Of a stretch of 64,000 nucleotides of DNA, positions 1,452-15,790 are shown piece after piece (the stretch's first letter is position 1; the number at the start of each line of letters is the position of its first letter). The DNA comes from Escherichia coli. GTDB lineage: Bacteria; Pseudomonadota; Gammaproteobacteria; Enterobacterales; Enterobacteriaceae. A program made the position numbers and the translations under genes. The notes below the pieces were generated by a model. It had not been told where the DNA came from, ran no database searches, and worked only from the letters and a program-made list of their open reading frames with translations. The stretch lies in NCBI RefSeq assembly GCF_036507355.1, contig NZ_AP027877.1. The stretch is one strand, 5' to 3'.

Positions 1452-1883
1452 TTAGTCCTGGCTGAGCGTAGCAAGCTGCGTCATACGATGCTGCCAGTCG
1501 GCATAGCAGCGGTGCATAAAGAGTCTGCTGCTGTCCGCTTCGATAAGGCAGATATCCGGACTTCTGAGTACGGCGGCAAGAAACCCGGCGTTGTTGGTGC
1601 TGCCCTGACCAAATAGTGGTCGAAACACACGCGACGGAAAGCTGTCCTGCTGCTGTTCAAGAATGGCGTGAATCGCATCAAGCGTTATCCATTCACGGGA
1701 GAACAGGCCTCCTTCGCCATTGGCGGTTAAGCGCAGGGCGAGGCTTCCGGTTTCATCCTCCTTACCCAGCTCATACGTCAGCAGTCCCTTACTGTGTGGA
1801 CTGATTTTCTCGGCTTCACCCCTGTAGAACACGGTATAGCTTTCGGTGACGGCGGCTTCGGTAGCGACTTTTTTCTTACTCAT
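1452..1883 (-). CDS. Hypothetical protein (143 aa)
   Basis: Six-frame ORF in apparent leftward operon; no family recognised. Confidence 0.4.
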   Translation of the reverse strand: MSKKKVATEAAVTESYTVFYRGEAEKISPHSKGLLTYELGKEDETGSLALRLTANGEGGLFSREWITLDAIHAILEQQQDSFPSRVFRPLFGQGSTNNAGFLAAVLRSPDICLIEADSSRLFMHRCYADWQHRMTQLATLSQD

Positions 1884-2247
1884 GGTTCAGCGCCTCAATC
1901 AGGTTCTGGAGTTGAGTGATAACGGTCGTGTCCGGGAACACCAGATAGATACCCTGTCCGTTATCGCAGACGATACCGAGCAGGAGATACCAGCCATCAT
2001 CAAGTGCGGTGACGTATTCCGGGTTAGCCAGTGCCACTGCCAGCAGCGGGTCTTCGGGGAGGGTGTCATCGTGGTTGAGATGCCAGAGCAGGGTTCTTGT
2101 TTCTTTCCAGAAAGCAGTAAACAGGTCGATATCATCTACGGGGCCAAGAATTTCATTGCTGAGGGCTTCCAGCGCGGAGGCTGGCAGGTTGAGAAGGGAA
2201 ATACTGGTAGGGGTTGTGAGTTTGTACATAGTTATCTCCATCATCAA
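1876..2247 (-). CDS. Hypothetical protein (117-123 aa)
   Basis: ORF with GGAG Shine-Dalgarno upstream of the internal Met (MYKLTTP...), so the start is probably 2229; stop overlaps next gene start by 8 nt. Confidence 0.4.
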   Translation of the reverse strand: MMMEITMYKLTTPTSISLLNLPASALEALSNEILGPVDDIDLFTAFWKETRTLLWHLNHDDTLPEDPLLAVALANPEYVTALDDGWYLLLGIVCDNGQGIYLVFPDTTVITQLQNLIEALNHE

Positions 2248-2457
2248 TCGAATATCATGGAAATAATATGTGTCCGTTTTAAGGGCTATTACAGGCTTGG
2301 TGTGTTGGATTTGTTTTTCTTATTACGAACAAATAGCGACTGGCTCAGGCCGGGATTGTTTAGAGACAGATTCAGCATAGATTCGTAAAAATAAAAACTA
2401 TTAGCGCGAGATCCTCTGTTTATGCCGTGACAGTTAACTGATAGGAGGCTTGTTGGT

Positions 2458-3161
2458 TGGATTTGCCCCTATATTTCCAGACACCTGTTATCACTTAACC
2501 CATTACTGGCCCGCTGCCGCAGATATTCCCGTGGCGAGCGATAACCCAGCGCACTATGCGGATGCCATTCGTTATAATGCTCGAACGCCTCTGCAAGGTT
2601 CTTTGCTGCCGTTAACCCGTCTGGTTTGGGCATGATACTTATGTAGTCACGCTTTATCGTTTTCACGAAGCTCTCTGCTATTCCGTTACTCTCCGGACTC
2701 CGCACTGCCGTGTTCTTCGGTTCAAGTCCCAACATCCTGGCGAACTGACGTGTTTCATTCGCCCGGTAGCATGAACCATTATCCGTCAGCCACTCCACTG
2801 GAGACGCCGGAAGCTCGCTGCCAAAGCGGCGTTCCACTGCTCCCAGCATGACGTCCTGTACTGTTTCACTGTCGAAGCCACCCGTTGTGACCCCCCAGTG
2901 CAGTGCCTCACGGTCACAGCAGTCCAACGCGAACGTGACCCGCAGTTTTTCTCCGTTATCACAGCGGAACTCAAACCCGTCAGAGCACCATCGCTGATTA
3001 CTTTCTTTCACAGCCACTCTGCCGGTATGTGCCCGTTTCGATGGCGGTACAGCGGGTTTTCGCTCAAGCAACAGCGCATTCTGGCGCATGATCCGGTAAA
3101 CACGTTTGGCATTGATCGCAGGCATACCATCAAGTTCTGTTTGTCTGCGAAGCAGCGCCCA
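2458..3161 (-). mobile_element. IS2 remnant: right inverted repeat plus 3' part of orfB (IS3-family transposase), 5' portion deleted
   Basis: ORF 2469-3125 matches the IS2 OrfB C-terminal region as I remember it (...[36 protein letters not shown]...[12 protein letters not shown]); terminus TGGATTTGCCCCTATATTTCCAGACA at 2458. Similarity stops abruptly near 3161. Confidence 0.8.
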
Positions 3162-3636
3162 TAACGCAGCCCTTGCCTTACTGGTGTTTCTGGCCCTGAC
3201 CGGATTACGCCTTGGTGAAACCCGTTATCTTCTGCTTGAGGATATCGACTGGTCCCGTCAGACCATCACTTTGCGAGAAACTAAAAACGGTAAGCTTCGC
3301 TGTGTGCCAGTGGGTGATAAGGCCTTTGTTCTTCTGACTGAGCAGCGCCAGCACTTGGGCGATAAAGGCTGGGTTTTCCCCGGCTATAACACAACTAATC
3401 CGGTTGCAGAACCACGCCGTCTGCAAAAGCGTATATGTGAGAAAGCCGGTATTTCACCATTCACTATTCATGAGATGCGACACACTTTCGCCACGAAACT
3501 TATCGAGAGTGGGGCTGACATCCATACCATCAAAGATTTACTGGGCCACAGCACCATAAAGGTTACCGAGAGGTACCTACATGGCAGCCCGGTGCGCTAC
3601 CACGAGGCCATTAACAAGGCGATGGATACGTTCTAG
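3160..3636 (+). pseudogene. Tyrosine recombinase (phage-type integrase) C-terminal catalytic fragment, N-terminus missing
   Basis: ORF 3106-3636 carries integrase catalytic motifs (HEMRHTFAT, LLGHSTIKVTERYLH) but only ~160 aa; directly abuts the truncated IS2 segment. Confidence 0.7.
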
Positions 3637-6365: not shown

Positions 6366-7553
6366 CTACAACGTATCGGGTAACTGAGCGCGGATACGTT
6401 CCGCCAGTAACTGACTGGTGTTCTGTAAGCGCTGAGGATGAAGATGTGCATAACGCTGTGAAGACTGACTGCTACGGTGCCCCAGTTGAGCCTGAACGTC
6501 ATATAGCGTACCGCCGTAGGACACGATGAGGGCGGCAACCGAATGGCGGCAGGTATGGATACACACTTCCTTGTCGAAAATTCCCGCCCGACGCACGATA
6601 CGCTGAAAGGCTTTAACCGGGTTACTCAGCGGCATTCCCTGTTTTTTACCAATAAACAACCACGGATTTCCCCGCTGCGTTGGCAGCGTTCTGATTACGT
6701 CCATCGCCAGTGAGTTAAGGTGAACAATCCGTCCATAGCCATTCTTGGTTTCAGGGAGCCACAGGGTGCGTTTAACCGGGTCAACATGCTCCCACTTTGC
6801 CAGACGCAGCTCATCGCGGCGAAGGCCGGTCAATAACAGCAGTTTGACATAGCGGGCAGCTACAGGGCTGGTATCGTTATCGGCGGAGAGAAAAATACGA
6901 CGAATTTCGTCCTCGGTAAAATAACGCTGTCGGGCGTTGTTCTCCCTGAGTAGCTGTACCACCCTTGCCGGATGAACAGAGGTCATGCTTTGCCTTCCGG
7001 CCCATGTAAAGACGGCTTTAATGAGTACGATGACACGGTTACAGGTAGCCGCTGACAGGGAAGTACTTAACGTCTGCTGAAGGCGCAGAATGCTCGCTGG
7101 TGTGATATCGCTCAGCAGCCTCTGACCAATGGCGGGACGGATATGATCGCGGTAGCGCTGAACATCCTTTCCCCAACTGCGTTTAGCGGATTTTGCCCAT
7201 GGCAGATAATGCTGATTAAAGAGTTCATCGAACGTCAGCTCCATTCTCTTGTTTTCACGCTCCTGCTTAGGGTCAGTGCCGGTGGCAAGGGAACGTTTGT
7301 GTTCTATGGCAATCTGACGGGCAAGATTGACGTCCACTTCAGGCCAGTGACCAATGGCGATGGCGCGTTTTCGTCCATGATAGAGGTAGCGGAGCAAAAA
7401 CTTTTTACGACCTTCTTTTCTGCTGACCAGACACTTGAGGCCGGAAATCTCGGTGTCGCTGTATTCGGCATCGGTGCTGCGTGCATCTGATGTGTTAGGG
7501 GGCAGTGATTTAATGAGCTGATTAGTAAAACGGAAGCGTTTGGGAGTGGACAT
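6366..7553 (-). CDS. int: P4-type tyrosine integrase
   Basis: 395-aa ORF with arm-binding-like N-terminus and catalytic R..HxxR..Y region (HTCRHSVAALIV, LGHRSSQSSQRYAHL); lies 7.3 kb from tRNA-Phe and is transcribed away from it. Confidence 0.85.
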   Translation of the reverse strand: MSTPKRFRFTNQLIKSLPPNTSDARSTDAEYSDTEISGLKCLVSRKEGRKKFLLRYLYHGRKRAIAIGHWPEVDVNLARQIAIEHKRSLATGTDPKQERENKRMELTFDELFNQHYLPWAKSAKRSWGKDVQRYRDHIRPAIGQRLLSDITPASILRLQQTLSTSLSAATCNRVIVLIKAVFTWAGRQSMTSVHPARVVQLLRENNARQRYFTEDEIRRIFLSADNDTSPVAARYVKLLLLTGLRRDELRLAKWEHVDPVKRTLWLPETKNGYGRIVHLNSLAMDVIRTLPTQRGNPWLFIGKKQGMPLSNPVKAFQRIVRRAGIFDKEVCIHTCRHSVAALIVSYGGTLYDVQAQLGHRSSQSSQRYAHLHPQRLQNTSQLLAERIRAQLPDTL

Positions 7554-7985
7554 ATAACCTCCTGTGACTGGTGTAAAGAACGTCAGGGTTGACCCATCCC
7601 CGGCACGGCGTTGTTAATGGCTAAGTTGATTTTCTGGCATGGCGAAGGGAATGCTGGTGCCACATGGTATGAATTAAGACGGGAAATGCAGAAAGAGCAG
7701 GCTTTACGGTCTGATTCTGGTCTTAAGGGAAAAGATTGCCGTTGGGGAAGAGTTCACAGAAATAATATGTGTTTCAGTCTAGAACAATTACATGCCATGA
7801 GGATCAAGAGAGTTGCCCGTATATGGCAGGTATCAAAGTTGGTTATGGATGTTGCCAAAACATAGTGGGGATGGATGTTGAAGTGCTAACTTGATGTTTT
7901 TAATGGGAAAGTGTAAATTGCGTGATGCGTTGCACTCATGTAGATAACACCATTGAAAGTATCAAATTGTTTGAAAAAAAATCAT

Positions 7986-8056
7986 CTTTGATCAACCTTA
8001 AGATTGTTTCTAGATGGTAAAATCTTCATATGGGAAAGAGCTCACTGGTAAGGAAG
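7986..8056 (+). promoter_or_regulatory. Putative promoter and RBS for the four-gene operon
   Basis: AT-rich divergent intergenic region; TTGATC ... TGGTAAAAT (extended -10-like) and AGGAAG 10 nt before the ATG at 8067. By eye only. Confidence 0.25.
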
Positions 8057-8066
8057 ACAAATCCTG

Positions 8067-9119
8067 ATGGGGATCATCGTACGAATTCTTAAAGCTAACC
8101 ATGGCGATTGCATTTTGGTGAGCCATGAAAGCGGTTCAGGCACTCTCAACTTGCTCATTGATGGGGGACCTGCGACGACATTCAGGTATGGCATTAGGCA
8201 GCGCTATTCTGGAGCATTGAGTAACGCTCTCGATGATCTGAAAGGAAAGGGGCAAAACATTGATCTGGCTATCCTGACCCACATTGATGATGATCACATA
8301 AATGGTTTTATCAAGGCATTCGAAAGTCCAAACTATCTGCGTCAGCTGGTTAAATCGATCTGGTTCAATTCTTCGAGGTTAATCACACATCATTTTAATG
8401 TGCCTGAAATTTGTGAAAATAATATTTTCTTGCAGGAAGTTTCCCCTGAAACTAGCGTTAAACAGGGGCAAGAACTTGAGGCATTACTTGATGAAATCGG
8501 ATGTGTGCGAGCACCGCTCATTATGGCAGGGCAAATCTACAAAGTAGGCCCGATTACTTTAACAGCACTTTCACCTGAACGAAGACAACTCGAACAGCTT
8601 TTGCATAAGTGGCCAACGGAAGTAAGTTCAGCTGACACTTCTTCATATGAGAATGATTATCACCGTTCATTGGACGAAATTTGGGCAGATGATAGATTTG
8701 AATCTGACTCATCTATTTATAATGGAAGCTCAATTGCATTTTTACTGGAAACAGATGACAAAAAAATGCTTTTTTTAGGAGACGCCAATGACCAAGTTGT
8801 TACAAAAAATTTAAGAGCATTGGGCTATAGCGAAACAAACAAGTTGAAGCTGGATCTGGTTAAAGTTTCGCATCATGGTAGTCAATACAACACAAGCAAC
8901 GAATTTCTTTCAATACTAGATTCTCCATGCTTTGTTATTTCAACCAATGGTTCGAAGCATGGTCTTCCTAATAAAAGGACTATTGCAAGGATCTTAAAGG
9001 AAACAGATGGTGATATTTATTTTAATTACAGCAATGTAATTACTCCGCTGCTTTTAGCGCATGAAGCTGAGAGCTATTCTTCTCGTCTAAAAGTGCTAGG
9101 TGATGAGATTAAATTCTAA
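8067..9119 (+). CDS. Metallo-beta-lactamase-fold hydrolase (putative nuclease)
   Basis: 350-aa ORF with MBL motifs in canonical order: LIDGG, THIDDDH (8278-8298), FLGDAN, VSHHGS. Confidence 0.7.
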   Translation: MGIIVRILKANHGDCILVSHESGSGTLNLLIDGGPATTFRYGIRQRYSGALSNALDDLKGKGQNIDLAILTHIDDDHINGFIKAFESPNYLRQLVKSIWFNSSRLITHHFNVPEICENNIFLQEVSPETSVKQGQELEALLDEIGCVRAPLIMAGQIYKVGPITLTALSPERRQLEQLLHKWPTEVSSADTSSYENDYHRSLDEIWADDRFESDSSIYNGSSIAFLLETDDKKMLFLGDANDQVVTKNLRALGYSETNKLKLDLVKVSHHGSQYNTSNEFLSILDSPCFVISTNGSKHGLPNKRTIARILKETDGDIYFNYSNVITPLLLAHEAESYSSRLKVLGDEIKF

Positions 9120-10419
9120 CATGACAGTTTACGAAATAATGCAGTCCCACTGCGTCATGGTTAATGGTGGCAGTGGTGTGCTAGTTAATGCAATGACACT
9201 GGATTACACATATGTACTGACTGCATACCATGTTATTCGTGACACTCTCGATAATATCGAAGTTACCGATCACAGTGGCAATAAACTTACAGTATTAGCT
9301 GTGCTCCTATATCCAGATATTAAATATTTGAACGAATCCCATAATGATTTCGCAATTTTAAAAATTGAATATCAACCAGAAGTTGCACAAAGTTGTTTTA
9401 CTGCTTCGACGTTGCCTCCTCGTGCTGAGCTTACATTAGTAGGATTTCCAAACACTGAAAGAAGGAGTTCGGATCCTATAAAATATTATGATGGACATAT
9501 GACTAGCGTGGTCGATGAGCTTGTCATTTTCACTGTTGATGGTGTACCAGGCTTAGCCACGATAAAGGGGATGTCAGGTGGAGGTGTATATCACATAGTT
9601 GGTAGAAATACATTTCTTGTTGGTGTTGAGTTTAGGATGGATGGCACTGAAGAGGAACAACAGTTTGGCCGAGTGCAATGCCATAGCTTAGCAAAGTTTG
9701 ATGAAATAATAAGAGCATACGATAGCGCACCGATGATTCCTGCCCATTTGGAATGCTTTTCTCGAATACAAGACAAAATATTTAAATTTAATGTTATTGA
9801 TCAAAACAATGTTCGTAATCTTAAAGATGCGTTAGAAGCCCTTTCCAGATCACTTATAGCTAGTGGGATGTCTCCGCCTTACAAAATCATGGGGCAATAT
9901 GGATTACAGCTTTTGATGGATCCCAAAACTCCTAATGAGCTCAGTAATAAAGAGTTATGGATTTCTTATTTTGAATTTTTAGTTATTTGCTCTGTGATAG
10001 ATAATGTTGGAATTGTGGATGATGCATATATAAAAAGCTTGGAGCGAAAGCGGCGGCTATTATATACCAGTAATGGTGCGAACTGGATTAGCCATTTGGA
10101 AGAACTACTCAAAACGGCACGAAAACTTTTAGATAAGGATGGCACTTTAATCGTTGCATCACCTGATGCTGCTGCAAGTGTCTTGCCTCCGAACTTTCGA
10201 CTTAAAAACGTAATAAGTAATATAGCGGTAGTGCCAAACCAGGGGCCGTTTGCTATCGATGAAGTTGAAAGTTCTATTTATACAAGCTTCAAATTAACTC
10301 ATCTGGAGGGACTCCGCAAAAGCTGCGTAATAGACCGTGAGGATGAATATCTAGTAGTTCCAGCAGGTGTACCACAATTGCAGTTATTTAAGGAGAAGCT
10401 TAATGAAATTATTAAGTAA
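9100..10419 (+). CDS. Trypsin-like serine protease domain fused to a ~250-aa C-terminal domain of unknown function
   Basis: His (LTAYHVI), Asp (NDFAILK), Ser (GMSGGGVY) in S1 order in the first ~170 aa. Start ambiguous (GTG 9100, ATG 9103 or ATG 9121); overlaps or abuts the upstream stop. Confidence 0.7.
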   Translation: MMRLNSNMTVYEIMQSHCVMVNGGSGVLVNAMTLDYTYVLTAYHVIRDTLDNIEVTDHSGNKLTVLAVLLYPDIKYLNESHNDFAILKIEYQPEVAQSCFTASTLPPRAELTLVGFPNTERRSSDPIKYYDGHMTSVVDELVIFTVDGVPGLATIKGMSGGGVYHIVGRNTFLVGVEFRMDGTEEEQQFGRVQCHSLAKFDEIIRAYDSAPMIPAHLECFSRIQDKIFKFNVIDQNNVRNLKDALEALSRSLIASGMSPPYKIMGQYGLQLLMDPKTPNELSNKELWISYFEFLVICSVIDNVGIVDDAYIKSLERKRRLLYTSNGANWISHLEELLKTARKLLDKDGTLIVASPDAAASVLPPNFRLKNVISNIAVVPNQGPFAIDEVESSIYTSFKLTHLEGLRKSCVIDREDEYLVVPAGVPQLQLFKEKLNEIIK

Positions 10420-10942
10420 GGAAGTCGATCTGAGTATTTTAAGTGTGAAATATGATAAAATCAGATTTCACATGTATTGCTCAGATGATCCACTTTCATT
10501 TATTTCCTGTATAGTATGTGTATGTGAGACTTCAGCCGATATTTTGGAGAATTGGCGTACTATTCAAAATGTGGTTTCTGTTCACTATCAACCATCGGGT
10601 GACTTAGCATCTTGGAATATGTATATTGTTTTTTTTACAACTGATGTTTTTCCTGTATGGGAAAAATATGAAATAGAAAACAATAAGTTTGCTGCTCGCA
10701 AGATAATTATTGATAAATTCTCAGGTGCCCCCACCTCTGCTCAGTTAGTTACTGAGTTGCAAAAATATTTGTTGGGAACAGACTTAAGACTTGATCCGCG
10801 AGTCAATGAGTCAAAAGAGGCTTTATTGTCTTTAGATAAATACGTTCGTGGTGCTCCATTAGATTCAAAGAATGAGTCCAGAGAAATCCGCGCCTCCATG
10901 GTCAATGAAATAATTAAATTTTTGAACAAAAATGAAAATTAA
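10403..10942 (+). CDS. Small protein of unknown function (possible adaptor component)
   Basis: 179-aa ORF from ATG 10403 with AGGAG upstream; overlaps previous gene end by 17 nt and next gene start by 11 nt. Confidence 0.55.
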   Translation: MKLLSKEVDLSILSVKYDKIRFHMYCSDDPLSFISCIVCVCETSADILENWRTIQNVVSVHYQPSGDLASWNMYIVFFTTDVFPVWEKYEIENNKFAARKIIIDKFSGAPTSAQLVTELQKYLLGTDLRLDPRVNESKEALLSLDKYVRGAPLDSKNESREIRASMVNEIIKFLNKNEN

Positions 10943-13900
10943 AAAAGTTGAGATTGAAGCATTTCGTGCCTACAAATCTAGGTCAGATGGCACGTTTGAT
11001 TTCACGAATGATGGAGATGTTGCTGCAAATTTTGTTGCGATCTATGCTCCGAATGGTTTTGGTAAAAGCTCCTTCTACGATGCTGTTGAATGGGCAATTA
11101 CCAATCACATGGCAAGACTTGGCGGAGAATATAATAAAGCTAATTATGAGAACGCTGCCAAAATCACCAAGGACGATAATGTTGGGCAAGAAATTTTACG
11201 TAATAAATATGTAGATAAAAATATACGCACAAAGGTAGTGGTATCAACCACTCGACCACTCCCTTTTGAGCGTAAACTACCCAAAGTCAGATCTAATGGG
11301 CGTGATTTGCGATTCGGAGATAATAGTCAAAGAGAAAATGATTTTTTCCGACAAGTGATTCTAAGTCAAGATGAAATTGATAGATTTCTCCGAGAAGCCA
11401 AACCGCAAGAGCGCTATACGAAATTTATGGAAAGTTTCGGTGGAGATATTGAAATTGCCCGTAAAGAGCTGTCAGTACTTATAAATGATAATAAGATTGA
11501 GTTGAATAATCTCAATAAAAAGAGAGAATCTATTCTTGAACAATTAAAACAACCAATAGATTCTTCAATTTTCCAAAAATTCAATTCTATTGCTGTTGAA
11601 TTGAATAAGTTGGGTGAAAATATTCAATTACCTGACGAGAGTTTTTCATCTCAAGATGAATATGCTCTTAATGTTAGTCTTATATCGCGACGCCATGAAC
11701 TCGACTCATCACGTTTAACGAACAATCGAACGGTAGAAGCACTGGAAGACAGGCTTCTAAAAATATCTGAAACTGAATTACATGTCCGCAGTTTAGCAGA
11801 ACAGAATTTACATCTTGCTAAATTAGTGAAAGGAGTGGCCGACGCTGATAGGTACCAATCACTTTTGGATTCATACGAAAAATGTGCAGAAGATCAGAAA
11901 ACCACACACATGCATATGACTCGTATTATAGAAGTGATTGATTGCCTTGATGATTTTCTAAAAATTGAGTCTCATCTTCTTGAGTTGTCTACTAGCCAAA
12001 AGATAATTTCTGAAGAACGCACCAAGATCTGTGCGCAGCTTGCAGGTTTTGAAACAACAATTAATCAATTGAATAAGGAGCTTAAGGCTGTAGATGATAG
12101 GGTCGCTATACTTAGGAAGACCGTTGATAACGCCGGGCAAGTATATTTGGAGCTCGCAAATAACCGGGCTCGGGTAAGTAACCTAACACAGCAAATATCA
12201 AAAAAAGAAGTTTCTATTAAGATAGATAAATCTAGGCTTGGGGAGTTGAATCGTGAGTTGACTAGACTTTCTGAACTCAATATTAATGCCACCTCATTAT
12301 CAAACGGAAATCTAGGGACCTTACTTTTAGAACCTACGAAAGTTGAGCAGCTGACGAGATGTTACGCCGAGTTTGATGTGATTGAATCACAAATTCAAGC
12401 TGTGCATGTTACTCAAAAAGCATTATCTGAACAGATGGAATTGCATGAACGACTGATTGCCATTGGAATTGACTATCTTAGTGTACGACCATCCAGTATC
12501 TGTCCTTTATGTACAGCTCCTCACCCATCTGCGGACGGTTTACTGGATAAAATTAAAGGGCGGAACCTTTTATCAGAATTAAGTGAGGAGAATTCTAAAC
12601 AGCTTTTATTTTTCTCTACACGTCAGAAAGAAATTCTTCAATCAATTCAGGATATTACTCAGTGCGCAATTGATTCAAAGGCTCAGTTGATTATTAACTT
12701 AAACAAGGAATTGAGTGAGACTGACGAGAGACTTACTCTTGCAGGTAGAGATATATATTCAATAGAAGCAGAGTTAAAGACTCTTGAGAAACGGACCACA
12801 GAGTTAGAAAGTTTAGTTTGGGCACTTTCACATGATGAACTGGTATCCCGAATTGAAAAAGAAATTGGTGAGCTTTCAATCAAAAGTTCAAAGCTCCTAG
12901 AAGGAAAAGCATTAATTACCCCTCAGGTTGAAATGCTTAATGAATCACTCAAAGAAAAAGACTCTGCGCAGCAAAAAATAGCTTCGGAGTTGGAAGGTAT
13001 CTTTAGCGGAAATATCTACATTACAGTTTATAAATACTTAAATGAAAATGCGATTTCGTCTTCATCCCTCAAAAGTCATACTGAAAAAAGGAAACTAGAG
13101 ATTGAGGCTGAAATAATTAAGTGTAAAACCACTATTGAGTTTTTGACTGAACAATGTGCTGTTTTACAGCAAAAAATGTTAAGTGATGGTATGTGGGTGG
13201 ATTTTGTTCAGTTGAAGCTGCAAAAAGAATCTTTAGAAATAAGTGTTGCCCGCTCTCAATCAGTAATTAACACGTTTTATGAGAGTTTATCTAACCTTAT
13301 AATTATCCGTCCTGAGTACAGTCTTGAAAAAGTCAAAGAGCTCATAGCTGCGAAAGTTCAGGATTGCCATCTTCGTACGAAAGAATTTGATAGGCTCTCA
13401 AATAATATTAATTTACTCATAGAACTTATGAGTTCGTTTAAGCCATATATTAAACATACAGCTCTTCAGAAAGATTTAATGGCTGAAGAGATGTTAATAA
13501 AACAGCGTGAACGGGTCGACACTACTTTAACCGCAGAAAGAGATGCAATAGTGGATAGCCTGAAACTTCTTATCAATAATTTCTTCTATGAAGATCTTAT
13601 TAATTCTATTTATAAGAAGATAGATCCGCATCCTGCCTTTAAAAAAGTAGAGTTTAAGGCTGACTTTGATTCTGATAAGCCAGGCCTAAATATTGTGGTT
13701 AGTGATGAGGTTGGAGAGCAAATCTCGCCAATACTTTATTTCAGTGCGGCTCAAACGAATATTCTAAGCTTAAGTGTCTTTTTAGCTAGTGCACTTCATG
13801 CGAAAGACGATGAGGGTAATCCCATCAATGTTGTTATGATTGATGACCCAATTCAGTCAATGGATTCGATTAATATACTCTCTACGATAGATCTTTTAAG

Positions 13901-14063
13901 AAGTATATGTGTTCAATTTGATAAACAAATTATTATTTCAACGCATGATGAAAACTTCTTTGCCTTACTCCAGCGCAAAATCCCTGCCCAAATTTTTGGA
14001 TCTAAATTCTTGCAATTGGAAAAGTTTGGTGTAGTCGTCCCGGTGCAACCCTTTGTGAACTAA
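10932..14063 (+). CDS. SbcC/Rad50-like ABC ATPase with long coiled coil and central CxxC zinc hook
   Basis: 1043 aa: Walker A NGFGKSS (Lys codon 11064-11066), Q-loop ILSQDE, CPLC at 12501-12512 (residues 524-527, mid-protein), signature-like FSAAQ, Walker B VVMIDDP, H-loop STHDE. The middle ~600 aa are heptad-rich and Leu/Glu/Lys-rich. Confidence 0.8.
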   Translation: MKIKKVEIEAFRAYKSRSDGTFDFTNDGDVAANFVAIYAPNGFGKSSFYDAVEWAITNHMARLGGEYNKANYENAAKITKDDNVGQEILRNKYVDKNIRTKVVVSTTRPLPFERKLPKVRSNGRDLRFGDNSQRENDFFRQVILSQDEIDRFLREAKPQERYTKFMESFGGDIEIARKELSVLINDNKIELNNLNKKRESILEQLKQPIDSSIFQKFNSIAVELNKLGENIQLPDESFSSQDEYALNVSLISRRHELDSSRLTNNRTVEALEDRLLKISETELHVRSLAEQNLHLAKLVKGVADADRYQSLLDSYEKCAEDQKTTHMHMTRIIEVIDCLDDFLKIESHLLELSTSQKIISEERTKICAQLAGFETTINQLNKELKAVDDRVAILRKTVDNAGQVYLELANNRARVSNLTQQISKKEVSIKIDKSRLGELNRELTRLSELNINATSLSNGNLGTLLLEPTKVEQLTRCYAEFDVIESQIQAVHVTQKALSEQMELHERLIAIGIDYLSVRPSSICPLCTAPHPSADGLLDKIKGRNLLSELSEENSKQLLFFSTRQKEILQSIQDITQCAIDSKAQLIINLNKELSETDERLTLAGRDIYSIEAELKTLEKRTTELESLVWALSHDELVSRIEKEIGELSIKSSKLLEGKALITPQVEMLNESLKEKDSAQQKIASELEGIFSGNIYITVYKYLNENAISSSSLKSHTEKRKLEIEAEIIKCKTTIEFLTEQCAVLQQKMLSDGMWVDFVQLKLQKESLEISVARSQSVINTFYESLSNLIIIRPEYSLEKVKELIAAKVQDCHLRTKEFDRLSNNINLLIELMSSFKPYIKHTALQKDLMAEEMLIKQRERVDTTLTAERDAIVDSLKLLINNFFYEDLINSIYKKIDPHPAFKKVEFKADFDSDKPGLNIVVSDEVGEQISPILYFSAAQTNILSLSVFLASALHAKDDEGNPINVVMIDDPIQSMDSINILSTIDLLRSICVQFDKQIIISTHDENFFALLQRKIPAQIFGSKFLQLEKFGVVVPVQPFVN

Positions 14064-14559
14064 AGTGCTTGCACTGCCTCTAAACAATCTGCATGCACAT
14101 CTCGTTGACTAAATTTGAAACGAGATGTGCATTGCTCGTTATAAAAATAAGGCATGTTCTAATTATCCAATCCCCATCAGTATAAGTGGGTGGATAGATA
14201 TATTTGGCCCCTTTAACAGATATGTTAATTTCCACTTTTCGCTTACAGTGGACCTGCAGCTCAGTAACTTACTCACTTTGTGCTAGGAACGGGCATTGCT
14301 AATAGTCAGAGTGTATGACCTGCTCATCGTTGATTAAGGACAGCGCTGTACTGGTTCGTTGAACCCACGGCTCACAACGGACACTCAGGTTATTATTCCA
14401 ATACGTTTAGCTCAAGTAGTATTACTACGGATAAATCATTTTATGATGGCGTGGAGAACGGGGGGATTCTGAAAATGGTAAGAAGTGAAAGGGCAAGAAG
14501 AGCTTGTTGCAGGTGGACGGACTGGTGAAGATTCCCATCTGGAGGGTGTATGCTGCCAA

Positions 14560-14730
14560 GTTTCCCCGCTTGCTATTGGGGATTTCCCCACCTTATTCCC
14601 CGCGACAAAATCATGTTAAGACCAGCGGATTAAGGAGAAATGATAATTCCCCCGTTTTCCCCGTATTTTCTACTTCATTATGAATGATCTGAGAGAAAGG
14701 AACCGTAGAGGACCGTAGAAAGACCGTAGC
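14560..14730. repeat. Clustered short direct repeats (five TTCCCC motifs at 14561-14663; three ACCGTAG repeats at 14702-14729, ~10-11 bp phasing)
   Basis: Read directly from the sequence in the 840-bp non-coding stretch between the operon and tRNA-Phe. Confidence 0.4.
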
Positions 14731-14899
14731 AGTGAGGTTAGGAAAAGGTACATCAGAGGATGTTGAGGTGTCTAAAAGTAACGAACATCTGCGAAAATGG
14801 CGAGAAATCCAGCAAACAAATAACGTGTTGCAACGACCAGAAATCTACCGTAGCCAAGAAAGGAAAAAGCCCCGCTTTGCAGCGAGGCCTTATGAATAT

Positions 14900-14975
14900 T
14901 GGTGCCCGGACTCGGAATCGAACCAAGGACACGGGGATTTTCAATCCCCTGCTCTACCGACTGAGCTATCCGGGC
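14900..14975 (-). tRNA. pheV: tRNA-Phe (GAA anticodon)
   Basis: Reverse complement reads GCCCGGATAGCTCAGTCGGTAGAGCAGGGGATTGAAAATCCCCGTGTCCTTGGTTCGATTCCGAGTCCGGGCACCA, the E. coli tRNA-Phe as I remember it; position next to yqgA-speC indicates pheV. Confidence 0.95.
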
Positions 14976-15080
14976 AACGGGGCGCATTAAACCTGATTCG
15001 CCTCGTCTCGTCAATCAAATTTCTTCAATTTACTGCAGACTGCACAATCTATCATCACTTTGCCGCTATTGCACGCATTG

Positions 15081-15790
15081 TCAGGCAAACCAGGCGGTCC
15101 AGGTGGCGGAAAGCGGCATTGCCAGAAGGAGTGCTGGAAGCATGTTGACCACCGGGAACATTTTAATGCCACAGATGCGTAATCCGGTTGCCAGCAGCAA
15201 TAAACCGCCTACGGCGCTGAAGTCTGCCATCATCGACGGTGTGGTCAGCGGTAATATCAGCGCGGCAGCCCACGCCAGCGTTAACTGGATGATCAGTAAT
15301 GGGATACTAATTACCGACACCGCAATACCCAGCGAGCAGGCGAAGATCATCGCCGTAAAGAAATCAAGAAATGACTTGGCGATTAAAATACTCGGATCGC
15401 CGGTCATCCCTTCGTTCATCGCCCCGAAGATCCCGGTGCCGCTGGCGCAAAACAGGACAATAATCGCGACATAATTCTGAATAAAAGATTCATGCGCTGG
15501 CTTCTTACGTGAGTGACGAAACAGATTTTGTGCTTTGGCGACCGCTGTATTGACGCCTTTCTCCAGCAGACAAATTTCGCCGATTAATGCTCCGAGTAAG
15601 GTTGCTAAAACCATCGCCGGAAGGTTGGCGCATTTCACCACCAGTAAAATACCAATCCCCAGCGATGCCAGACCAAAAATAGATGTCATGGAGACGCGCG
15701 GATACGTTCCGGTAAGCGTTGGCTGAGCAGTGCGCCGAGAACGCCACCCAGTAATACTGCACTAGCGTTGATAAAAGGGCCGATGACCAC
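15081..15790 (-). pseudogene. yqgA: DUF554 inner-membrane protein, apparently frameshifted near codon 33
   Basis: 202-aa ORF (15081-15689). The 101 nt upstream (15690-15790, GTG start) encode a hydrophobic N-terminus in another frame ending in a stop. 33+202 = 235 aa, the length I recall for YqgA. Confidence 0.55.

Follow-up and report, generated by a model that had tools for sequence, protein, structure and literature searches.

The pheV locus and its island

The DNA analysed here (the window) is a 64-kb stretch of the Escherichia coli contig NZ_AP027877.1 (assembly GCF_036507355.1), and our subject is a non-coding, repeat-rich interval of 836 bp within it (14064–14899). The interval adjoins a tRNA-Phe (GAA) gene on the minus strand (14900–14975; ARAGORN, and Rfam tRNA at 68 bits), whose 3' end points toward the repeats. 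Because yqgA and speC adjoin it, this gene is pheV, as had been proposed in an earlier sequence-only reading of the same DNA.

The five TTCCCC motifs that this reading had placed within about 100 bp were all located on the plus strand (14562–14662), with starts at 14562, 14584, 14596, 14647 and 14657, that is, five copies in 101 bp. Since the whole window contains 31 copies, both strands counted, a cluster of five in 101 bp is far beyond chance. Inverted copies of the same box, GGGGATT, occur at 14462–14468 and 14578–14584. The three ACCGTAG repeats, described as spaced by 10–11 bp, were found at 14702, 14712 and 14723, in steps of 10 and then 11 bp; overlooked at the time was a fourth copy at 14847, 47 nt off the tRNA. 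ACCGTAG occurs nine times in the window, against 4.1 expected.

The interval turned out to be composite. Its leftmost 250–340 bp (approximately 14064–14400) are the flank of a Lamassu defence cargo and are fully shared only among three near-identical genomes; the complete 836 bp are likewise common to only three E. coli genomes. The remainder (approximately 14400–14899) is a widely conserved element.

The element belongs to an island family with a constant order of parts. Starting from tRNA-Phe, one finds a non-coding arm of ~500 bp, a variable cargo, an int upstream region of 220–240 bp, the integrase gene, a gene for a DUF927 primase-helicase (phrog_8841 match, 4e-44), and further genes. In YZ22MPE54 the island measures 30.5 kb, and at its ends the 3' part of the tRNA is repeated perfectly over 49 bp. 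The integrase of the window (6366–7553, minus strand) is a P4-type tyrosine integrase with an N-terminal arm-binding domain, as judged from Pfam matches to Phage_integrase (2.9e-23), Arm-DNA-bind_3 (PF13356; 1.5e-13, residues 10–101) and Phage_int_M (5e-07). Of 5426 complete E. coli genomes, 134 have this gene; at the blastn level it matched none of the other integrase genes of E. coli and so stands as a DNA-similarity group of its own. The simple tRNA–integrase arrangement that had been assumed does not apply here: the integrase gene lies 7.3 kb from the tRNA, beyond the Lamassu cargo. In ECONIH4 cargo is lacking altogether: the arm runs directly into the int upstream region, and the tRNA and int are 716 bp apart.

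The conserved arm, i.e., the right-hand 480–530 bp of the interval, was detected in 221 of the 5426 genomes (~4%) at 75–100% identity, and in all 221 it is devoid of any annotated feature. Its immediate neighbour, in all cases examined, is the 3' end of tRNA-Phe, a 3' fragment of tRNA-Phe, or the 49-bp core described below. The tRNA is pheV in loci L004, L006, L008 and L009 and pheU in L003, L005 and L007; in the O103:H2 strain 12009 the arm abuts a tRNA-Phe 3' fragment (L002 8474–8495), and on Klebsiella plasmids and in GPEC1189 it is adjoined by the 49-bp core. For the comparison with island-free strains that the sequence-only reading had proposed, K-12 proved informative. Rather than an unchanged copy of the element, its pheV is followed by an unrelated terminator of its own, and homology with the window ends exactly at the tRNA 3' end. 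The outcome that had been named as a refutation was thus not observed.

Among species-representative genomes, a scan detected the same arrangement in 13 other Enterobacterales species, with Erwinia, Morganella, Citrobacter, Enterobacter, Kluyvera, Buttiauxella, Mixta and Shimwellia among the genera. Across genera, Erwinia and Morganella included, the arm is 90–100% identical. The fourth ACCGTAG was exactly 47 nt from the tRNA end wherever the flank held, a result that is silent on motif conservation because the scan selected for the motif. The arm is absent from IMG/VR and also from phage records, in which only the tRNA is matched.

Two occurrences outside complete islands can be mentioned here. 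In O103:H2 12009, a 560-bp remnant consisting of the arm only sits between two tRNA-Phe fragments (L002 7889–8495), in a composite LEE/CP4-like island with no integrase nearby. The arm and the 49-bp core are also found on the K. pneumoniae plasmid pS141.1 (L029 8700–9320) and on seven other Klebsiella plasmids, all large and conjugative, directly beside genes annotated as integrating conjugative element (ICE) proteins. The arrangement has the appearance of a tandem-island junction that was carried onto a plasmid.

Attachment core and phased repeats

The attachment core spans 49 bp (14900–14948), from the tRNA 3' end through the anticodon stem–loop, and was delimited by direct repeats and by an insertion in frvX. 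The far end of the same island carries these 49 bp again as a perfect direct repeat (L009 12048–12096). In GPEC1189, the element is 100% identical to that of the window, yet the whole island sits inside frvX, with the 49 bp at the junction (L001 16837–16890, L102 14940–14975, L103 5604–5626).

The frvX site, CCAGGGATTTTCACTCCCTTG, has the anticodon stem–loop in common with tRNA-Phe. When the empty frvX site of K-12 (CCAGGGATTTTCACTCCCTTGTG), the tRNA (ACGGGGATTTTCAATCCCCTGCT) and the island's own junction (ACGGGGATTTTCAATCCCTTCAAAA) are compared, all three share GGGA, a 7-nt spacer and TCCC, which correspond to the anticodon stem and loop. Because the stem–loop is common to the three sites, we take the core half-sites to be GGGGA (14933–14937) and TCCCC (14945–14949, the last base falling just beyond the 49-bp repeat), with TTTTCAA as the overlap. 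The only mismatch in the spacer carries the island allele at both junctions, as expected for a mismatch within the overlap region. Judging from these alignments, the site in frvX is a secondary attachment site by which the core is defined. Since an identical island sits in such a site, the integration system has been active recently.

The part of the arm closest to the tRNA (module A, 14681–14865) is highly conserved, with a mean per-column agreement with the window of 0.89 over 39 metagenomic variants. It contains two groups of putative arm-type sites, both read on the plus strand. The proximal group (14835–14853) consists of GACCAGAA and TACCGTAG; the latter starts 54 nt from the tRNA 3' end, a distance that is fixed, and because GACCAGAA occurs 11 bp upstream, the site of the fourth repeat is one half of a phased pair. 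The distal group (14701–14729), some 125 bp away, is a phased array of AACCGTAG, GACCGTAG and GACCGTAG, spaced by 10 and 11 bp.

Conservation of these sites was assessed on two further collections. The E. coli variants were gathered by BLAST and hence were unselected for the motif. In these, the second and third repeats, as well as the proximal pair and the block around the fourth site (ACCAGAAATCTACCGTA), are invariant, while the first repeat is degenerate or deleted. The second collection comprised 70 metagenomic arms, chosen solely for having the GACCAGAAATCTACC block and then a tRNA end. They split into two clades, with 39 distinct arms in clade 1 and 22 in clade 2. At the tRNA-adjacent position, clade 1 has TACCGTAG with its start 54 nt off the tRNA end (two arms have TACCGTAA), and clade 2 has TACCGGAA or TACCAGAA. 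As phased sites, clade 1 has GACCGTAG at 178 and 189, often also at 199 and once at 210; clade 2 has GACCGGAC and GACCGGAT, 11 bp apart, at ~243–257, and usually GACCGGAA near 145 too. Phased sites, in two to four copies, are present in 36 of the 39 distinct clade-1 arms and in about two-thirds of those of clade 2.

The E. coli strain KMi029 belongs to clade 2; its integrase gene is 65% identical in DNA sequence to that of the window. The arms of the two clades can be aligned only over a 40-bp block at the proximal site, 16 bp at the phased pair and a box of 21 bp. Where the window clade reads ACCGTAG, in the proximal and phased positions alike, the sister clade reads ACCGGA. The same change has thus taken place at sites separated by more than 120 bp, amid general divergence, which we regard as the footprint of one sequence-specific protein that reads all of them. 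The third alignable block, TGACCTGCTCATCGTTGATTA (14316–14336, plus strand), was recognized by sequence comparison near the outer edge of the arm; it occurs once per island and is common to islands with differing cargo. This suggests that the functional arm may extend out to this box.

At the opposite end of the island, conservation covers only 63–136 bp and closes with CTACCAGAA and CTACCAT, 11 bp apart. The pair is kept in a variant whose flanks have diverged. It was found only by aligning far ends; a search for k-mers common to both island ends gave nothing convincing at 8–11 nt.

Directly after the tRNA comes an intrinsic terminator (14856–14891, minus strand; hairpin at 14866–14891, then a T run), the sole terminator-like match in 13900–15100. 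It serves pheV and is supplied by the island. Its stem is retained in variants of the family, and at the same position the sister clade and K-12 have unrelated hairpins followed by T runs.

In the attP site of phage lambda, arm-type sites (P1, P2, P'1–P'3) are bound by the N-terminal domain of Int. The combination seen here, namely a phased array, a pair on the opposite arm and an integrase with an arm-binding domain, reproduces the lambda pattern, and for this reason we read the ACCGTAG repeats as arm-type sites. More precisely, we consider it probable (about 0.6) that 14400–14899 is the tRNA-proximal recombination arm (attL, P' side) of an integrative island of ~30 kb, with ACC(R)(K)A motifs as putative arm-type sites of the integrase. 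The sites lie beside the crossover core, a multi-copy motif distinct from the core occurs on both arms (partially so on the far arm), the cognate integrase has the appropriate N-terminal domain, and the motif changes with the integrase lineage while its positions persist. The suggestion that the short repeats are recombinase arm sites therefore fared differently for the two motifs. Invariance, the fixed distance to the tRNA, the concerted change in the sister clade and the far-arm pair all argue for ACCGTAG as a candidate arm-type site; TTCCCC forms a real and conserved array, whose reading as recombinase sites is more tentative.

According to the scheme that we propose, the P4-type integrase (6366–7553) would insert the island at the anticodon loop of tRNA-Phe. 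Proceeding from the tRNA, the arm comprises the replacement pheV terminator, the GACCAGAA/TACCGTAG pair, the phased array of two to four ACCGTAG, and the C/G-box array of 240 bp. We propose that the N-terminal domain of the integrase binds the ACC(R)(K)A sites, which, together with the far-arm pair CTACCAGAA/CTACCAT, would assemble an intasome for integration and excision, presumably as in lambda. The TTCCCC boxes might, with low confidence, be accessory or regulatory sites for the integrase or for a partner protein.

In common with lambda, the island has short non-core direct repeats phased at about one helical turn and grouped as a contiguous array on one side and as a pair on the opposite arm, and its integrase possesses a separate arm-binding domain. 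Unlike in lambda, the motif here is ACC-R-K-A, the sites extend up to 200 bp from the tRNA end, the N-terminal domain is of the P4 type (PF13356), the core is the anticodon stem–loop of a tRNA, and there are an extra proximal pair and an extra 240-bp array of boxes.

The C/G-box array and competing explanations

The TTCCCC motifs are part of a larger array (module B, 14440–14680), defined by sequence comparison, which contains WTCCCC boxes on the plus strand and inverted GGGGAW boxes. It is bracketed by a long-range inverted repeat with arms of 19 nt, CGTGGAGAACGGGGGGATT on the left (14450–14468) and AATTCCCCCGTTTTCCCCG on the right (14645–14663), the latter holding TTCCCC boxes 4 and 5. Module B also contains the palindrome GGGGATTTCCCC (14578–14589), which, as read from the sequence, mimics the anticodon stem with a shortened loop. 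Module B exists as three sequence types that are just 55–75% alike (the tRNA-proximal module is ~90% alike), and still the C and G runs are kept, with the invariant columns concentrated in the C runs. The palindrome is maintained in all types as a G run and a C run around a variable centre. About 37 of 44 clade-1 loci have such an array, with 4–8 boxes in 250 bp and a start at a fixed position, ~445 nt off the tRNA.

When compared with the core, the boxes (WWTCCCC on the plus strand, GGGGAWW inverted) include two identical 7-mers, GGGGATT, and five that are one base off, the shared motif being short; they lie 235–440 bp away from the core. Extra copies of a core motif serve as accessory recombinase repeats in integron attI (DR1/DR2) and in the IRS of Tn4430 (DR1–DR2). 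The resemblance to our candidate lies in additional core-type half-sites beside a crossover site. Those recombinases, however, have no arm-binding domain, and their accessory sites fall within ~100 bp, as compared with 235–440 bp here. In KMi029, of the sister clade, similar boxes are found instead upstream of int (e.g., ATCCCCCGTTTTTCCG and GGCGGGGGGAAATTTCCC), and in the cargo-free layout module B stands directly upstream of the int upstream box. This last placement suggests a role for module B tied to the expression or action of the integrase.

Because the array is missing from the arms of the sister clade and a GGGGGGAATCTGG box is present in a GI-pheV arm, the boxes are not simply required for recognition of the core. 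That they are accessory core-type sites of the integrase is a possibility that we consider doubtful. Also unlikely is a dedicated control element made of ~7 copies of the core half-site and bracketed by the inverted repeat, which would recruit or trap the integrase, or fold in a plus-strand transcript, and so couple int expression to excision. If true, this would let the arm work despite the kilobases of swappable cargo between it and int. Derivation of the element from copies of tRNA-Phe was also considered and rejected, local alignments being no better than those of shuffled sequences. A further observation concerns a tandem arrangement in L009 (11851–12047), where the arm of a classical pheV integrase also has GGGGGGAATCTGG and an inverted TCTACCGAA, which resemble both motif classes.

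Several points weigh against the arm-site interpretation. An arm of ~500 bp is about three times as long as a usual attL (80–170 nt; PMC2951348). The far-arm motif (ACCAGAA, ACCATT) has just ACC and a purine in common with ACCGTAG, and the two clades amount essentially to one evolutionary contrast, not to many independent ones. The C-box array is found in none of 26 clade-2 arms, which adjoin the same tRNA, and the arm of a classical GI-pheV island carries one GGGGGGAATCTGG box. No IHF consensus site was found in the arm, and no excised attP junction, which would read GAGGCCTTATGAAT, the 49-bp core and TTCAAAAAAGACC, was found in metagenome contigs. Finally, three tandem phased repeats are also what directionality factors of the lambda Xis type bind, and the distal array could be the target of one.

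The last point leads to the main rival explanation. In this view, an excisionase-type directionality factor, or some other small regulator of the island, would bind the phased ACCGTAG array, and bending of the arm would control the direction of recombination. The 10–11 bp spacing and the direct orientation of the repeats suit it, the island encodes small HTH proteins (a DeoR-like protein of 79 aa and a WYL regulator), and in KplE1 sites of this kind occur on the tRNA-side attL (PMC2951348). We nevertheless judge it unlikely. The same class of motif recurs in three separate clusters distributed over both arms, the pattern of integrase arm sites, and no recognizable member of the Xis or AlpA families was present among the proteins tested. 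A literature search on the bare motif ACCGTAG was uninformative.

Three other explanations bear on module B or on the region as a whole. One sign that module B might act as a folded single strand (a structured RNA or a single-stranded DNA signal on the plus strand, formed by pairing of 14450–14468 with 14645–14663) is that the 16 paired columns of the long-range helix are complementary in 95% of cells over 36 sequences, compared with 49–61% in slid controls. There is also an excess of wobble pairs that only the plus strand allows (77, against 11 for the minus strand, counted on distinct haplotypes), and column-shuffle z-scores are about −9 to −10 on both strands. But covariation in the helix is no better than in shuffles (also 95%), with one cell changed on both sides; RNAalifold, run on 16 and on 36 sequences and on both strands, returned a weak consensus energy and a covariation term of approximately zero; the two strands score alike, as inverted DNA boxes would; and the wobble excess can be explained by the purine-rich boxes. 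An Rfam scan by E-value (13800–15200) gave only the tRNA and sub-threshold noise, and no sigma-70-like promoter and no terminator besides that of the tRNA were seen in 13900–15100. We therefore view a folded module B as quite improbable. A small RNA gene, the other option raised in the sequence-only reading, found no support in these searches, which showed neither a promoter and terminator of its own nor a covarying structure or family match.

The short iterons of P4 ori and crr occur in both orientations, and the C/G-box array can be likened to them. By analogy, module B could be a replication origin or cis-replication region whose iterons are bound by the DUF927 primase-helicase. It has at least seven short motif copies, in both orientations, around a more A+T-rich centre, and the island does encode a primase/helicase. 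Such a function seems improbable to much the same degree as folding, given that 9 kb separate the array from the primase gene in the window, that sister-clade islands have DUF927 and no such array in the arm, and that resemblance of the boxes to an integrase core half-site is needless for an origin. Least probable of all is that everything beyond the terminator and a short attL is a functionless relic which looks conserved through recent spread of the island. The 90–100% identity between genera, Erwinia and Morganella among them, does indicate recent horizontal spread, and integrase-less remnants persist (e.g., in O103:H2 and A30). On the other hand, the three module B types keep their C and G runs and positions at 55–75% likeness, and in the sister clade nothing but the motif blocks has survived.

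Coding potential was also considered. A conserved ORF was rejected, as no ORF family is common to all 40 arms, and those ORFs that persist lie in near-invariant DNA or begin inside the tRNA. An integrase pseudogene remnant in 14000–14460 was likewise rejected, the matches being only noise (E values >0.3).

Cargo slot, related systems and implications

The variable cargo occupies a slot between the attachment arm and the int upstream region (7780–14400 in the window). The Lamassu (ABC-3C) system found there (8067–14063, plus strand) was identified by PADLOC as LmuA (two proteins) and LmuB, with E values from 0 to 1e-128, and its Pfam domains are CTD4, MComp1 and AAA_23/SMC_N. In relatives, the slot holds SIR2 with an ATPase, a restriction enzyme, a reverse transcriptase of retron type III-A, a Septu-like PtuA/PtuB pair, or nothing, and in metagenomic loci the cargo measures 0.8–5.9 kb. 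A perfect hairpin with a 14-bp stem and no T run (14093–14132, plus strand), 30 nt past the lmuB stop, belongs to the cargo and was found only in three genomes at ≥99% identity. Its RNA-OUT-like match is weak and below threshold on both strands, and we regard it as a cargo-specific hairpin.

The left edge of the slot is marked by a conserved box, AGAAATAATATGTG-N15-ATTACATG (7758–7794), 205–240 bp upstream of int, which is probably part of the int promoter or operator. The box, in the form AGAAATAATATGTG-N15-ATTAC, is kept across genera, and a second copy (2259–2295) lies just upstream of a leftward ORF (1876–2247). A weaker look-alike of the AGAAATAATATGTG box occurs at the left edge of the arm (14400–14432). 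The two slot edges resemble each other and the single junction of the cargo-free island. We do not claim that the cargo is flanked by a duplicated 30-bp site, because the left copy is int-promoter-like and another copy stands upstream of a different gene (2259); the likeness of the slot edges is modest.

Some members of the family carry a second recombinase. Upstream of the DUF927 gene, L009 and L001 encode a protein of 398 aa together with a second tyrosine recombinase. The corresponding part of the window (1846–3636) is ~1.9 kb shorter and has an ORF with an rve domain (IS-type integrase core) at 2469–3125. The P4 genes psu, delta and sid were not found among the annotated island genes or the proteins tested.

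Among described systems, the IntS–TorI module of KplE1/HK620 at argW offers a close parallel. Its attL contains sites for both the integrase and the directionality factor and overlaps the int promoter, and typical attL sites span 80–170 nt (PMC2951348). In both cases the attL arm is on the tRNA side, between the tRNA and int, and the KplE1 arm is tied to the int promoter and to autoregulation (PMC2951348). Unlike KplE1, the island family described here has a conserved arm of ~500 bp, usually followed by 0.8–25 kb of cargo before the int promoter.

GI-pheV islands have intP4 immediately adjacent to pheV and direct repeats of 19 or 23 bp (PMC11537424). Our island uses the same tRNA gene and a P4-type tyrosine integrase, but the repeat is 49 bp, the crossover falls in the anticodon loop, int is 0.7–25 kb from the tRNA, and the integrase belongs to a separate DNA-similarity group. 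Assignment to the GI-pheV (intP4) type was consequently rejected, with int 7.3 kb off in the window (716 bp even in the cargo-free island) and a repeat of 49 bp.

A conserved mobile scaffold at a tRNA with an interchangeable defence slot is a feature shared with the hotspots of P4-like satellites and with integrase-only defence islands (PMC9122126, PMC10121019). The family fits the integrase-only islands described at tRNA hotspots. What differs is the position of the slot, flanked by the attachment arm on one side and the int promoter region on the other, and the presence of a DUF927 primase-helicase in the scaffold.

Integrase docking sites are a known type of feature; the island family in which we propose them is so far uncharacterised. 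The arm and the conserved int upstream box are possible anchors for the mining of new defence cargo. The mobilisation of integrase-only defence islands at tRNA hotspots has been called unclear (PMC10121019), and our results bear on how such islands move, as the family described here has a complete two-armed attachment site and a recent insertion at a secondary site. A 0.5-kb piece of unannotated DNA, present in ~4% of E. coli genomes and in many other Enterobacterales, can now be regarded as a defined part of a mobile element, comprising a recombination arm, candidate integrase sites and the terminator of pheV.

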